A stretch of DNA of 64,000 bases, taken from contig OZ024741.1 in the NCBI GenBank assembly GCA_964016885.1, positions 44,392,001 through 44,456,000 on the forward strand, written 5' to 3'. The notes below the pieces were generated by a model. It ran no database searches and had not been told where the DNA came from. It saw only the letters and a program-made list of their open reading frames with translations. Source of the stretch: Eledone cirrhosa. Lineage: Eukaryota. A program made the translations under genes and the position numbers. Positions 28,801 through 60,300 of the stretch are shown in pieces (the first letter of the stretch is position 1; each line of letters opens with the position of its first letter).

Positions 28801-29855
28801 TGCTTGTCAGGTGCGTTTCGATTAGTGCCATGCATAGTGCTTGATTGCTTATGGCTAAGTCTCCGAGGTAGGACATTTTACTCATGTTACTGAGTTTCAC
28901 CAGGCCTCTGACATTCAGCAGCAGCACTGGTGTGACTTTTGGGGTGCCAGTAATGGCTGTCGGTATGACACCTGGTCTGGTGTCAGCGGCGGCCACTCTG
29001 GGTCCCTTAACTGTGGTGGTCTCGAGTGCTGGTGTGGATGACCCTGGCTCTGGAGACGATGCAGCCAGATCAGCTGTCCCACAATCTTCTCTGCCATCAC
29101 TAAAAAATGTTTCTGCTCTGCTGCTGCCATCTGTATCTCGTCGGCATGTGCGTGCCTTCTCCTTGTTGGTACGGCACGCGCGACATCAGCATACTTCTGG
29201 AGGCGGCGTATTTCGGCTTTAGCTGGGGCATGTTGCGCGAGTAGGATGGGCATAGTTCGTTTGAGACCTAGGGTGGGTGAATCTGCATCCCATCCCTGTC
29301 TCTCCATGCCAGCATGTCCTGTTCTTGAAAAACTTGCACATTACTTGTTTTTTTTTGTTCCCAGTGTCTCGGTGCTTTCTGTTCTTCCAGTTGTCCACTG
29401 GTCCCTCTGGGCTTGGTTCTCCTTCGGAAGGTGATTTCGCTTTTCACCTTTGCCCTTTGCTTTGTTGGTTGCCCGGCCTGCCCTCCCTGACTGTGGTGGA
29501 TGGTATCTCATTTTCTTTCAGGTCCGTGCTTGTGCTCTCCTCCTTTTATTTTTCCTTCTCTCTCTCCTCATCTTTCTCTTCGGTTTTCTCCTCCCTGAGG
29601 ACACGGCTTAGCATCGCCATATGTGGCGCTATGAGAACATACGCCTTCTTAATTTATTTTCTCTTTCTCTCTATCTGTGCCAGGGTCCCAGAAACCCATG
29701 GCTCTTCAGGTTCTCCGCCATCTGTTTGCTTGGTGGAGAGCCATCAGCCATGGTCCACCCCTTGATCAAAACCGCTAGTTCCATCTTTGACCAGTTTCGC
29801 TGACTCCTAATTTCACCTTTTTCCTGTATGCAGTCCATTTCGCTGTGGAGGGGAG
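25875..29855 (-). mobile_element. APE-RT LINE (CR1/L2-like group), decayed, 5' end lost in the gap
   Basis: ORF1 remnant with CKFFKNRTCWHGETGMGCRFTH (CCCH), ORF2 fragments, and a 3' UTR stem-loop CAGCC-GGAT-GGCTG-AAAC. Confidence 0.92.
25949..28996 (-). pseudogene. LINE ORF2 (AP endonuclease plus reverse transcriptase), disrupted
   Basis: LLLNVRGL, IETHL, GGVALY, LSDH (APE); NYRPVSL, QHGF, YLDFAKAFD, GVPQG, YADD, LYSLERRRERY (RT). Split over four ORFs. Confidence 0.92.
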
Positions 29856-32006: not shown

Positions 32007-32477
32007 AGCAGTTGAGCAGTTGAAGTATAAGGACGTGTTTTTACTTCTCTCCCCGAGTAAGCAGCAAGTCACACAGCCACAAAACAAAACCACAAGACAA
32101 AACCAAACAAACAAAAATTGACCGGTTAATACATTTTCATACATCTATATTATTATATATTTAAAAATTGACCGGTTAATACTTTTTTCATACATCTATA
32201 TTATTATATATTTGAAACCACGTGTTTTCGAACTTGTGAGTACATTTTCCTTTAACTACAAATTATTATTATATACTTTCGTCTTTTCATTAACTTAATT
32301 AATTTCAAATAACCAGAATATACATATATATATATATATATACTCATATTTATATACATACGCTTCTCACTCACACACAAGAAAAACAAAAAACAAAAAT
32401 AAATCAAAAATAAATTAAAAAAAAAATATATATATATTGAAATACTTAACTAAAACACACACACACTCAAAACTAGA

Positions 32478-33542
32478 ATGGCTAACCAGCAAAAATCCAA
32501 ACAGAACTGGTCTGATAATGAAATCGACATTCTAATAAACACATGGCATTGCCTTTCCCAAACTGAAGACATACATGCTTCATCTCTGAACGACATTGCT
32601 AAACGTACAGTTCAATTTTTGAAAACTCGATCTGAACAACAGATTCAAAATAAATTAAAGCAAATCGAAATTGCTTTTAAATTAATCAATAAACATTTGG
32701 ATAAACTACGGTGTGTTTTCTCTTCGAATGCTGTCCAGCAGCAGCAACAACAACAACAGCAGCTACAACAGCAACAACAACAACAGCTACAACAACAACA
32801 TCAACAACAGCTACAACAACAACATCAACACCAGCAACAACAACAACAACGACAACAACAGTGTGAACCACTCCTTGATTCATCAACAATGGCCGATCTA
32901 CTAAATGAAACTATTGACCCACCAGTAGCCTCTGTCTCACAGCATGAAACGCCACATCCTTTCTCTGGCCCAGCAGTCCAATCATCACCACTGCCAACAT
33001 CTCTGCCTACTACTACTACTACAACATTTTTGTCTACTGCTATGTCAAGGAATTTACCTTCTAATACCAGAACAAGAACTCTCCCTCCCACAGTCCACAA
33101 AGGTCGTCAAATCCTACCCAAACCATCATCTACACCTCTCACAACACCCACACCCACATACCCACCCACTCGAAACCCCATCATTTGCCGCTACTCTCTA
33201 CGCTATAGAATATGTACGGATAGTGGCTGCAAATTCACCCATTTACCTAGGACAAAACGATCTATCCCCACAAACAGCCACCACCATAATACATACTCTA
33301 ATTTAACACCAACACAACCACCAATAACTCAAACAAGGAATCCACAAATCTGCCGTTTTTCCCTGCGAGACAGATTGTGTTTAGACCGGGATTGTCCCTT
33401 TACCCATCTCCCGGGGACCCGTCGGATAAATGAAAATAAAATTAAAATAAAAGCAAAAACAAAAACCATAACCTACATAAAAATAACCACTACCACAGTC
33501 ACCAACAGTCTTCTAAACAGGAAACTTCTTCCTCTTTTTTAG
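32478..33542 (+). CDS. LINE ORF1: Myb/SANT-like N-terminus, polyQ, two CCCH zinc fingers
   Basis: WSDNEIDILINTW..IA..RSEQQIQNKLKQI; CRYSLRYRICTDSGCKFTH and CRFSLRDRLCLDRDCPFTH. The true C-terminus may lie in frame 33446-33646. Confidence 0.8.
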   Translation: MANQQKSKQNWSDNEIDILINTWHCLSQTEDIHASSLNDIAKRTVQFLKTRSEQQIQNKLKQIEIAFKLINKHLDKLRCVFSSNAVQQQQQQQQQLQQQQQQQLQQQHQQQLQQQHQHQQQQQQRQQQCEPLLDSSTMADLLNETIDPPVASVSQHETPHPFSGPAVQSSPLPTSLPTTTTTTFLSTAMSRNLPSNTRTRTLPPTVHKGRQILPKPSSTPLTTPTPTYPPTRNPIICRYSLRYRICTDSGCKFTHLPRTKRSIPTNSHHHNTYSNLTPTQPPITQTRNPQICRFSLRDRLCLDRDCPFTHLPGTRRINENKIKIKAKTKTITYIKITTTTVTNSLLNRKLLPLF

Positions 33543-33633
33543 CCATAATGAATCTGGCAAAAGAACTGGAAAAAAACATTCGAGCTATCACCCAGCACCA
33601 CCCTCCACTATCACCCCACTGCACAAACTCCCA

Positions 33634-36600
33634 TTGCTGCCATTAACAAACAAACAAATTAACAACACACCAAAACAATTAAAACCATCCACTCTCGCCT
33701 CTACATTTTTGCTTAACGCCCAAGGCATCAGCCCTTCCACCAATACTCAAAAATGGAAGATCAAATTCCTGGAGGACTGGATTGATGTCCATCCAAACCA
33801 CATCCCTTTCTTCGTCCTCACTGAAACCCATCTCAGTAACCTCCACTTGGAAGCTGAGGTGAAAGTGAAAAATTTCAAAGCCATCCGTGCTGATCGCGCT
33901 GGCAGAAGAAAGGGCGGAACTGCCATTTATGTCCATAATTCTTTCTCAACAGAGGCTATGAACATATTCACTAATGGATACTGTGAGGCAGTCACTGTAT
34001 TCAGTCAAACCAACAACCTATTAGTAGTTGGGCTCTATAGGCCACCCCAAACGCCTGTACCATGCTTCAAGGAATGCCTCAACAGCATAAAGTGTTTCAT
34101 CCAAGAGTGTCACCCTGACAACATCTTAATGATGGGGGACTTCAACCTCCCCGGAGTTGACTGGTCCACAAACACCCTGCCACCAGGTTCTTCTGCCTCA
34201 ACCTCTGACAGGGAAGCTGTGGAATCGCTTCTTGACTTCATGGATTATTTCTTCCTATCCCAACTAGTGCTCGAACCAACGAGGTGCCACAAAAACGTCC
34301 TAGACTTAATTTTCAGCAATCACACTGACAATATCCACAATATTGCAGTGGAGAAAACTCTACTCTCTGATCATGACATGGTTCTCTGTGATCTGAGATT
34401 CCACCGTCCAATATACAAACCCAATGTCATCTCTCCTGTCCATCCGTTTGACGCTATGGATTTCCACAATGCAAACTGGGAAGCGATCAGTCATGATCTT
34501 GCACATGTCGACTGGTCCTTCACGCACACTCATACACCCACTAACATCAAAAAGTCCTGGCAGACATTTGTGGACACTGTTACAAACATATGTGCTAAAC
34601 ACACCCCATTAAGAACTATAAACAAATCTAAGAGCAGAATCCCTAGAAATAGAAAAACGCTCATCAGAAAAATTAAGAGAACGAACAAAAAAATCAACAA
34701 GCTGAAATACTGTCAGCAGCAACACATCAACTTGACTGCCATTTCATCACTAGAGATTAAAAAACATAACCTCCAAAACAACATAATGTCCCTCATCAAC
34801 AATCAGAGAAGAGCTGAAGAGGCCTGGGCCATTGAGAAGATCAAACTCAATCCCAAAGTGTTCTTTTCATTTGCAAAAAAACACAAAATCACTGGCTCTA
34901 CTGTTGGCCCTCTAATTGATGAAAATGGCACTCTTCAAGACAATGCTAAAACCATGGGTGAGATACTGCAGAAACAATACTGCTCTGTTTTCAGCAATCC
35001 TGATATGGCCGATCTGGGCTGTATCGGCGATGTTACTCCCCATTACACCTTATCGGACATAACGTTTGGCGCCCCTGATGTCTTGGCGGCAATAAAGGAA
35101 ATCAAGCATAATTCAGCAGTAGGTCCCGATAGGTTCCCTGCTTGTGTCTTGAAGGCGTGTCAACACCAACTTGCTTCTCCTCTTGCCAATCTGTGGCGGA
35201 ACTCACTGGATGCTGGATATGTGCCAGAAAACCTTCTATCCCAGTCTGTTGTCCCAGTTTTCAAAAAGGGAAACAAATCCCTTGCCGTGAATTACCGTCC
35301 AATCTCACTCACCTCTCATATCATTAAGGTATTTGAGCGAGTGGTGAGATCGCGAATGACCCACTTCCTTGAGAGTAACAATATGCTGAACTCCAACCAG
35401 CATGGATTCCGTAATGGAAGGGATTGCCTGACGCAACTACTGCATCACTTTGATGACATTTTGAGAGCCTTGGGAGAGGGTTCCAACACTGATGTTATCT
35501 ACCTTGATTTCAGCAAGGCCTTTGACAGGGTTGATCATAACATTCTACTGAGAAAGCTGTCCAATATTGGTGTCATTGGAAAGCTGCTGCAGTGGATCAA
35601 GAGCTTCCTGTCAAACAGAACCCAACATGTTGTAGTTGAGGGAGTCAAATCAAGCCCAGCCAAAGTCAGTAGTGGAGTCCCACAAGGCACTGTGTTGGGC
35701 CCACTTCTCTTCATCATCTATATTAATGACATCACTGACATCATCAAACACAGCAACATTAAAATTTTCGCTGATGATTCCAAGCTCCAAAAGGTCATCA
35801 ATGGCGTGGATGACCGGATAAGCCTTCAGTCAGACCTACTGGCTGTTACCCAATGGGCAGAAAAGAACAACATGTTACTGAACGAGGACAAATTCGAACT
35901 GATCCACTTTGGAAAAGAGGATGCTCTGAAACTCCCGTACTCCCTTCCCTCCGGGGAAACTCTCGTGGCATCTAACAACATCAGAGACTTGGGAGTAACC
36001 GTGGACAGCAACATAAGCTGGACCACGCATATAAGCAGCAAAGTTGACATGGCCCGCAGAATGTGTTCCTGGATCCTCAGAACCTTCCAGTCGAGAGATT
36101 CCCGCACCATTATCCTTCTCTTCTCTACTTTCGCCCGACCACAACTTGAATACTGTTGTCCACTGTGGTCTCCCCACACGAAACAAAGTATCATGAAACT
36201 TGAAGCTCCTCAAAGGGCAATCACGAAAAAGATAGATGGCATGTCAGACCTTGACTACTGGGGTCGATTGGAAAACCTGAAACTTTACTCACTCCAACGT
36301 CGCCGTGAGCGTTATATTATCTGCATGATGTGGAAAATGTTCCATCATCACTGCCCAAATGATGTTGGCATCGCCTTCAAGATACACCCAAGGCTTGGGC
36401 CCCGTGCTATCCGTCCCATTCAAAAATCTAAATCGCAACTCATAACAACAATACGGCACAATTATTTCACCTCAATCGGCCCTGCTCTCTTCAACATCAC
36501 ACCAGGACACGTCAAAACAGAAACTGACCACACAAAATTCAAGAAGTCGTTGGACAAATTCCTCCAAGTAATCCCGGACGAACCACCCACACCCGGATAT

Positions 36601-36654
36601 GTCTCCGCAAACAGTAATTCTCTTCTCGAATGGGCCATGTTGCCCAAATCCTGA
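33634..36654 (+). CDS. LINE ORF2: AP endonuclease plus reverse transcriptase, uninterrupted
   Basis: LLNAQGI, LTETHL, GDFN, SDHD; [29 protein letters not shown]. Frame is open from 33517. The listed start is TTG and the first ATG is at 33958. Confidence 0.95.
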
Positions 36655-36738
36655 ATTGAAAGACTTCGCCAGGTGGTGCTATTAAGTTAGACATGGCCTG
36701 GGCCAACACTGGCCAAAACATTTCAAAGTTATTCAAAG

Positions 36739-40712
<3,974 letters not shown>

Positions 40713-57387: not shown

Positions 57388-60300
57388 CTACAGCCGCATG
57401 ACCATTCTCGCCACATTCACCCACCTTTCAGCAAATGTACTGGTGGGCAGCACTTCTCTCTCCACCCTCACCTTCCTTTCCAAGTGAAACTTGAAAAAGT
57501 TGATGAGGGATTGGCCGAAGAGAAAAGTGTCTGTCTTCAGTCCTTTCAACCTCGTCCGCCATACAACCTCTTTCGCTACTGCTACCAGGCAGAGGAAAAT
57601 TGCCTGCCTTTCCTGGCCAAAAGAAGGCGGCGGGTCGATCTTCACTATGGACTCGGCCGATAGCCGGATCCGTTCTACACGCGACAACAGCTGTTCAACA
57701 TAACTCCACAAGTCAGTAATGCACGGACACTGGATGAGTGCGTGCAGAACGGTTTCGTCGCTCTGCGCGCATCTCGGGCAGGCCCGTCTGACAGTACTTC
57801 CGTGCCTGTAGAGCTTATTTCGAACCGGCAGTGCCCCCCGGTAGCACTGCCAAGCGAGGGATTTTTGGAAATTATCCATCGTCCCCGGCTCGAAAGTCCT
57901 CCGGTACAGACTGGTTAATTCGACTTCGTTGACTCCAAGAGCCTCTCCGAGTGCGTCGTCGCACTTGCCCACCACTAATCCTCTATAGAACTCGAGAGTG
58001 GAAGTTCCACTGACCGCATTGCCCGCCTGATAGAAGGCAGTGAGTGCCTGGCAACATTCCAAATGCCCGTCACCCAGTCTCGGTCTCTTCTTGACCCAGG
58101 ACTGCAGCTCAGTAAAAAAAACGAGCTGCGGAAAGGCCCGTCTGACAAACGGCGACCACACCTGTTCACCGTTTAGGCATAAAATCTGGAGATGCCGCAG
58201 CCTCAGCGCGTGCCTGCGCATCATTAGCCACGGCATACCCAGCCCTCCATGTAGAGGGTGCTGGCAGCAGATGGACCGCCTCACCAGCGGAACCTGACCC
58301 CTCCACAAGAATTTGAAGAGGAGCCGCTCCAAGATGGCGAGGCATGAACGGGGGCAAGGACGGTAGTAGATGACGGACGCGATGTACGCGTTCGCCACCT
58401 CCGCCCGACATTTCAGTGATAGCGTCATCCCAGCCCATTTCTGGGTGAGACTGGCTACCCTGCCCGTCACCTCGTCCCAATTCTTATCCACCTGGAGGTC
58501 TGGCCCGAAACAAACCGCTAGCAACTTTACCGGTCCGTCCTTCCAGCGCCTAACGACGCTGTTGGACGGCATGGACTTGCCTCTCCAGGTGCCGTGTTGC
58601 AAGCCCACCGACTTTTCCGGGTTAAGTTTTGCTCCCGTCAACCTTTCACATTCCTCCAATAAGTTGCCAATCACATCGATTTCTGAGGTGTCCGACACCA
58701 TCACGGTGAAGTCGTCCGCATAAGCTGACACAGCCTTTCCGCGTCCCGGTTCGAGCGGGATGCCCTGCAACAGCTCCAGACTCCGCACTAAAGGCTCGAG
58801 AGTCAATACGTACAGAAGGGAGGAGAGAGGGAACCCTTGCGGACCGATAGGGAGACCTGAAACGGTTCCGAGAGGTAGCCATTCATTTTGACCATCGAGC
58901 AGGTGCCGCTGTGCATTGCAGCGATCTAGCTTCTGAAGACGGGGCCGAAGCCAGCCGCATTGAGGACAGCCTCCAGGTACCGATGGTCGACCCTATCGAA
59001 TGCTTTCGATTGATCTAAATTGACCAGAGCCCCACCGAAGCCAGGTTTACACCCTACCTTCTCTATGATGTATCGCATTAGGTGGATGTTGCCGTGTATG
59101 GACCTGGTTGGGTTTGCGCAAGTTTGCGCCTCCCCAACCAAATCCCCGACGACAAGCGCCAACCTCTTCGCTAACAAACAGGCCAAAATCTTAAACTCAG
59201 TGTTGAGCAGAGTTATGGGCCTGAAATTGTCTAATGTGTCCCTCTTGTTCTCGTCTTTACTTATCAGCGTCACTACGCTCCGGCTCACAGAACTGGGAAT
59301 ACACCCGTTTTGCTGCCAGTTGCAGTAGAGGGCTTCGAGGAGATTGGAGAACAAGTCTGGCATATTTACGTAAAGCTCGTAGGGCAGACCATCCAAACCG
59401 GGTGCCTCATGCAGCCGACAAGGGTATCCTGAATCTCGGCTGAAGGAATTCGCCTTTCGCAGCGCCCAGCGTCAGCCGTCGAGAGTTGCGGCAAGCCATC
59501 GAGGTAGGGACTGAAGTCTGCCCCCATCTCTGACCCGCCACTTCCTCCGAACAACCGAGCAAAATGTTGGCGAAAGGCCTCACACATCCTCTTGGAATCG
59601 CTTAGCTCGTGCCCGTCTCGGTCCGTCAAAGACCGAATCGTGGTTTTATTACCACGGTGCGCCTCTGCCACGTGGGCCCATCGAACAGCTTTGGTTCCCT
59701 CGTTTCTCAGAGCACGCGCCTTAGCTCTGACAATGCAACCTTCACATTTAATGGTCTAATGCCATTCTCGCCGCTAGCACGTCAGTTGCAATACCACTAC
59801 CAATAGCCTCGTCTAACTTATCTACCAACTCCCCCTCCTTTCTATTTTTCTCTAACGCTACTTCTTTGCTAAACTCTATCGACATTACTCTAATTTCTCT
59901 TTTGATAGCCCCCCACCATCTATTATTGACGACTCCCCTTGACAACATTTTCTTAACTAAATTGTTGACCTGGTCCCTGTAAGCCTTATGTGCCGGACAT
60001 GACATGTTTAGCTTCCAGTAACCAGGTCTTAACCTACGCGTTCAATCTAGGTCGACCATACAAATCACAAACTTGTGATCTGAATAGGCGACCTTTTCAA
60101 AACGTGGACAGTTTACAACATTTCTGTCTATTTGCTTAATGAATATCCTGTCTATATTCGATCTAGATGACCTATGCGGTTAGCACACACCTATGCGGTT
60201 AGGTCCACACTGGCGCATTAGGGAAATCTAGTCGGTACCTGTCAGACAGTTGGAACTGGCTGATCAGGTTCTTGAAGCTTTTGCACCCCCCGCTCCTATC

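Follow-up and report, generated by a model that had tools for sequence, protein, structure and literature searches.

The way in which ORF2 is translated in LINEs with two ORFs has been settled for few elements. In zebrafish ZfL2-1, a member of the L2 clade, ORF2 is reportedly reached by readthrough of the ORF1 stop codon, which also yields a fusion protein; this is suppression of an in-frame stop and, unlike the arrangement described here, involves no change of frame. A −1 junction is known from gag-pol of HIV-1, which shares with the LINE of this study the heptamer U UUU UUA, its phase and the passage from a structural ORF to a polymerase ORF. Among LINEs, TRE5-A and TRE3-A of Dictyostelium have overlapping ORF1 and ORF2, and one review states in its available text that both need a −1 frameshift for ORF2 (PMC5911963); the available part of a second review mentions overlap only (PMC5633606). 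These are amoebal APE LINEs of the L1 clade, targeted to tRNA genes and equipped with a C-terminal zinc finger, and in this they differ from the present LINE. Drosophila HeT-A is likewise listed as needing frameshift and is the only non-LTR element so named in the accessible text of a 2016 review (PMC5009743), but its shift lies inside a gag-only element that has no reverse transcriptase. Human L1 and silkworm SART1 resemble the present LINE in their bicistronic RNA and low ORF2 output. However, the sources, as far as their text is available, give unusual initiation for L1 (PMC5009743) and termination-reinitiation for SART1 (PMC10275272), with neither a long −1 overlap nor a fusion protein. 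Zorro3 requires its AUG, according to the accessible part of its description (PMC1965478), and a preprint on octopus LINEs makes no mention of CR1 or frameshift in the portion available (10.1101/2021.01.24.427974). No slippery site in animal CR1-type LINEs was found in the literature search; older subscription papers may hold such a remark.

The LINE analysed here occupies positions 32008-36741 (plus strand) of a 64,000-nt stretch of Eledone cirrhosa DNA, called the window below, where it is inserted full-length in a (TA)n tract; the same 5′ end adjoins TA in copies L018 and L028. It is an APE-type non-LTR retrotransposon with two ORFs. Its ORF2 encodes an APE endonuclease followed by a reverse transcriptase, it has no LTRs, its 3′ end is simple, with a 10-nt unit repeated twice at 36722-36741 and no poly(A), and its copies are dispersed, many of them being 5′-incomplete. 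There are 612 exact matches to the ORF1-ORF2 junction in the 3.0-Gb genome. The group is presumably of CR1 type, judging from its motifs and the short-repeat 3′ end. On an endonuclease tree built by a quick method, this family (family 1), three others of the same genome (families 2, 3, and 5) and the outside element L162 form one group with SH-aLRT 99. Relatives of the ORF1 of one sister family, at 88-95% identity, are labelled Octopus vulgaris by their source. The 5′ UTR (32008-32477) contains no ATG; GTAAGC and GTGAGT in it are strong candidates for splice donors, and an AG immediately precedes the ORF1 ATG, so that an intron in the 5′ UTR is possible judging from these signals. Elsewhere in the window, a distant reverse transcriptase fragment of 26% identity lies on the minus strand at 58815-59396.

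ORF1, as it is read in the family, extends over 32478-33646 (plus strand), from an ATG at 32478 to a TAA at 33644-33646, encodes 383-395 aa, and is broken in the window copy. It is composed of a weak Myb/SANT-like N-terminus, poly-Gln, two C-x8-C-x4-C-x3-H fingers, and FL with a helix-like tail; its domain matches, PF13837 (E 0.002) and PF10650 (E 0.011), are both below the Pfam cut-off. The break is due to an A-run at 33444-33447 that has four A in the window and five in the family. This one-base loss sends the window ORF1 to a TAG at 33540-33542, where it ends in LLPLF* and meets the heptamer in the third frame. The earlier note had recorded this ending correctly and offered two ways out, a 1-nt indel in the A-runs or a +1 slip at UUU-UAG. 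The indel proved to be the right one. All 29 other top copies compared, 29 of the 39 other matches listed, have five A and are mutually identical over 301 nt, and an extra A behind 33443 is present in four of four public runs compared. The shortened run is either a mutation or a homopolymer error. The +1 slip fits the frame of the window copy only and is refuted for the family, since with the extra A none of the 29 other copies reads UUU-UAG; the −1 arrangement holds once the lost base is accounted for, the slip is therefore unnecessary, and we give it virtually no credence. In public run X1, summed contig depth peaks at about 10,000 over 33299-33640 against about 70-480 elsewhere, contig depth not being a measure of expression.

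The ORF2 frame runs for 1045 codons from stop to stop (33517-36654, plus strand). A TAA at 33514-33516, six codons 5′ of the heptamer, closes it upstream, and the endonuclease begins with FLLN at 33706; entry into ORF2 must therefore take place between 33517 and 33706. The first ATG of the frame is at 33958, inside the endonuclease and 3′ of its LLNAQGI and LTETHL motifs, and the coordinates given for all of this by the earlier note hold. As the note had also supposed, there is no upstream AUG: no Met precedes the endonuclease in the ORF2 frame in any of 30 copies. The reverse transcriptase lies at about 35269-36000, and the domain matches of ORF2 are PF14529 (E 2e-13) and PF00078 (E 1e-30).

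The heptamer U UUU UUA, the predicted −1 shift site, is at 33535-33541 (plus strand) in the family ORF1 frame, 36 codons 5′ of the ORF1 stop. It is part of TTTTTTAG at 33535-33542, and the frame 33446-33646 reads ...SSSFLAIMNLAKELEK...SHCCH*. The start anchor of ORF1 was matched in 19 of the 29 copies. Three of these are broken further upstream, and in the other 16 ORF1 runs uninterrupted for 383-395 aa. In all 16, T TTT TTA is in frame, ORF2 is at −1, and ORF1 ends SSSFLAIMNLAKELEK...SHCCH*. The claim that ORF2 lies in the −1 frame of ORF1 at this site is thus true of the family, for which no fused ORF was found. A second shift-competent heptamer, A AAA AAC, follows in the same phase 36 nt 3′ of the first (33571-33577, plus strand); it is present in 30 of 30 copies and is not canonical in the sister family. 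In one natural copy, L067, the A-run of this second site has an indel, by which ORF1 and ORF2 become a single frame of 714 codons. ORF1 ends in Cys-rich sequences (CCH, CCC, GQC, SQC, CHACT) in families 1, 2, and 3 and in the outside elements L188, L211, and L221, which may be no more than a reflection of Leu codons in the ORF2 frame.

Since the window holds 51 instances of TTTTTTA, both strands counted, presence of the heptamer alone is at chance level, and the signal lies in its phase and conservation. Families 2 and 5 were chosen regardless of the site, the former as the second LINE of the window and the latter from ORF2 protein searches with two relatives as queries. In the endonuclease, they are 31% and 29% identical to the present LINE, and each of them carries T TTT TTA, its phase unchanged. 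In family 2, whose ORF2 is 35% identical, the site is at 29101-29107 on the minus strand, and the heptamer is intact in 19 of 20 copies although the preceding codon varies. In family 5, AGT TTT TTA stands two codons 3′ of the stop that opens the ORF2 frame, an arrangement seen in all nine copies that reach the site (seven of the 16 loci fall short of it). The Met-free run is 62 codons long in family 2 and 74 in family 5. Going by each family's own codon use, the x-Phe-Leu residues would be spelled T TTT TTA with a probability of 0.015 and 0.009, respectively; nucleotide conservation thus exceeds what the protein needs. Across families 1, 2, and 5, the overlap is kept open from heptamer to ORF1 stop for 36, 63, and 72 codons (odds of an ORF2 frame open that far, 0.04, 0.04, and 0.006), and the ORF2 frame is closed 2-26 codons 5′ of the heptamer. 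In the sister family 3 (65% identity), the heptamer is retained by five of eight older copies. The conservation of TTTTTTA expected by the earlier note therefore extends to divergent families. In family 4, a high-copy LINE outside this group (loci L061, L068, and L075), G GGA AAC TAA ends ORF1, and ORF2 follows at −1 without Met in three of three copies. The junction of family 1 has the X XXY YYZ heptamer in the frame of the upstream ORF and an open, AUG-less −1 frame leading into the downstream protein.

A stimulatory element is the part of a classical −1 site that was not seen. In HIV-1, a stem-loop lies a few bases 3′ of the heptamer, whereas none was found at the LINE site: 3′ of the heptamer, z was −0.3 to 0.0 for local folds free of pseudoknots. 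In the canonical viral type, a stem-loop or pseudoknot would be placed 5-9 nt downstream. The second family likewise shows no stable fold 3′ of its site (z +0.1 to +1.0), and z falls below −2 in only one of 15 heptamer elements. For this reason the site is not classified as a canonical structure-stimulated one. The junction is real, family-wide and conserved, and it is likely to be a site of −1 frameshifting that is free of structure.

LINEs outside this genome were surveyed with an alignment of 43 ORF2 proteins, which gave 160 loci on metagenome and bacterial-bin contigs that we infer to be animal DNA. Among L161-L240, many contigs of bacterial or archaeal bins carry animal-type LINEs, likely as host contamination. 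A recognisable endonuclease start was found in 62 of the 160 loci; removal of five whose contig contains no upstream stop and four at 70% identity or more left 53 elements. ORF1 overlaps ORF2 at −1 in 20 of them and at +1 in 10 and is in frame across one stop in eight; the remaining 15 have no long ORF1. A canonical heptamer in shift phase is present in 11 of the 20 −1 elements, against 0 and 1 in the other two phases, in none of the 10 +1-type elements, and in one of the eight in-frame ones. If the amino acids of ORF1 are held constant and neither frame may be interrupted, 5.3 would be expected (p=4e-4), and under random codons 3.1 (p=2e-5), relatedness among the elements being ignored in both values. 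With the five families of the present genome, the count becomes 15 of 25, where family 3, represented by a decayed copy, is scored as lacking the heptamer. In three elements dropped from the survey (L165, L181, and L182), the ORF1 stop closely follows one of the heptamers T TTT TTA and T TTA AAC, and the heptamers that replace U UUU UUA elsewhere are G GGA AAC, A AAA AAC, and U UUA AAC.

The spelling of the site can be followed into a second group of the quick endonuclease tree, formed by L188, L211, and L221 (SH-aLRT 99). Both groups have a CCCH-type ORF1 with x-Phe-Leu and a helix-like tail; the site reads T TTT TTA in L188 as well as L221, and T TTT TTG in L211. Multiplied over seven U6A elements, the codon odds come to 4e-13, a value given no weight as a test since several of them were selected for the heptamer. 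A search with ORF1 found seven proteins, and all five that include the tail keep Ser-Phe-Leu, at the level of protein sequence only. A word-based ORF2 protein search gave two matches, a metagenome scan with a single endonuclease gave 122 pattern matches and no confirmed case, and none was found in the viral contigs scanned.

The other junctions of the survey are described here without statistics. Eight are in frame across a single stop (L087, L094, L099, L151, L174, L176, L177, and L186); in four of them the stop is followed by CAA or CAG, and a TAG G context is found in three, which resembles viral readthrough contexts. In four of the seven +1 overlaps displayed (L090, L098, L173, and L204), TTT C stands in the ORF1 frame, resembling UUU-C +1 motifs. 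Among the −1 overlaps, G GGG GAA T at the start is common to L101, L167, L170, L185, and L191, and in three cases it makes GGA ATG G in the ORF2 frame; this group may use either a non-canonical slip or AUG reinitiation.

From the missing AUG, the conserved in-phase heptamer and the overlap at −1, ORF2 is probably made as an ORF1-ORF2 fusion by low-level −1 ribosomal frameshifting at U UUU UUA. Most ribosomes would finish ORF1 (about 390 aa), and a few per cent would undergo a tandem slip of tRNA-Phe and tRNA-Leu into the ORF2 frame. The fusion would have about 1,390 aa, of which 357 are ORF1 residues (counted in L010) and 1,037 follow the slip, with a junction ...SSSFL-SHNESGK (or FF-S); the predicted junction peptides are QETSSSFLSHNESGK or QETSSSFFSHNESGK beside the unshifted QETSSSFLAIMNLAK. 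The shift would set a high ratio of ORF1p to enzyme, as it does for Gag to Gag-Pol. The LINE has no protease, so the fusion would likely stay uncut. Since no downstream structure was found, the shift would rest on the slipperiness of the heptamer itself, perhaps with help from the A AAA AAC site. U6A is described as inherently slippery, and in the accessible part of that study it caused 4-6% of ribosomes in reticulocyte lysate to shift by −1 with no stimulator present (PMC3458567). A LINE enzyme may need no more than this. Apart from the missing fold, several results of the survey were counted against frameshifting. Nine of the 20 −1 overlaps from outside this genome are without a canonical heptamer. 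Of the 11 outside elements that do have one, seven, the nearest relative L162 among them, show a Met between it and the endonuclease, and the heptamers of L083, L084, and L162 are largely explained by ORF1 amino acids (0.77-0.87).

The main rival is reinitiation at CUG or UUG near the ORF1 stop. ORF2 would then start alone, from a near-cognate codon reached by internal initiation or by reinitiation that needs no AUG, and the heptamer would be a by-product of Phe-Leu. Near-cognate ATC, CTG, TTG, and CTG codons do stand in the ORF2 frame at 33610-33637, just 5′ of the ORF1 stop, TTG CTG recurs in the sister family, L1 and SART1 provide precedents for such starts, and the lack of a stimulator at the heptamer suits it. 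However, a start near the stop leaves unexplained why three families keep 36-72 codons open 5′ of it and close the frame just 5′ of the heptamer, why the codons for Phe-Leu should be T TTT TTA at odds of 1-3% each, and why the same heptamer stands 5′ of the stop in the unrelated ORF1s of L081 and L237. We regard reinitiation as unlikely on this account.

Two further explanations act on the RNA. TTTTTTAG could be a 3′ splice acceptor, from which spliced RNA joins the start of ORF1 to ORF2; a long pyrimidine run (33525-33542) ends there in TAG, two weak GT sites of the right phase are present in ORF1, and G directly follows the heptamer in all seven exact U6A cases, a splice-acceptor-like feature that was also counted against frameshifting. 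Because of cis preference, a spliced RNA that makes ORF2p and keeps its 3′ end would be expected to leave retrocopies. Against 612 intact junctions, no copy has non-T at both −5 and −4, a pattern that would catch about half of splice joins, and no retrocopy spliced at UUUUUUAG was found. Moreover, the matching Phe-Leu of L211 is encoded as T TTT TTG G, without AG, and AG is also missing where the heptamer is A AAA AAC or G GGA AAC. Splicing is accordingly left with a small chance. No joint at 33542/33543 is seen among 15 of 17 shown from the four public runs, whose contigs are of unrecorded kind and give no evidence either way. Alternatively, RNA polymerase could slip on the T6 run and add a base, giving a minority of transcripts with a fused frame. 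The homopolymer is at the right place, and T7 does occur in six genomic copies; however, T5 is about equally frequent (four copies) and T7 amounts to about 1% of some 600 copies, so insertions show no preference for fused templates, and the G GGA AAC sites offer no run to slip on. This makes slippage in transcription very improbable.

The −1 fusion at U UUU UUA may belong to a wider pattern. The endonuclease tree does not separate the three junction types, which are scattered among one another, and a CCCH-finger ORF1 is accompanied by the U6A site across two ORF2 lineages. CR1-type LINEs across animals might thus make reverse transcriptase as ORF1-ORF2 fusions and switch among the full retroviral recoding menu (−1 on several heptamers, +1 at UUU-C, and readthrough of a single stop), a proposal to which we give somewhat less than an even chance. 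A conserved, structure-free U6A site in young, high-copy animal LINEs is open to testing, as it offers a defined heptamer, a junction peptide and natural variants. If frameshifting is indeed used, the enzyme would bear the RNA-binding fingers of ORF1 at its N-terminus, and protein ratios of these LINEs would be set as in retroviruses. ORF2 annotations that begin at the first Met would then lose part of the endonuclease, and cell assays with ORF2 alone would use the wrong protein.
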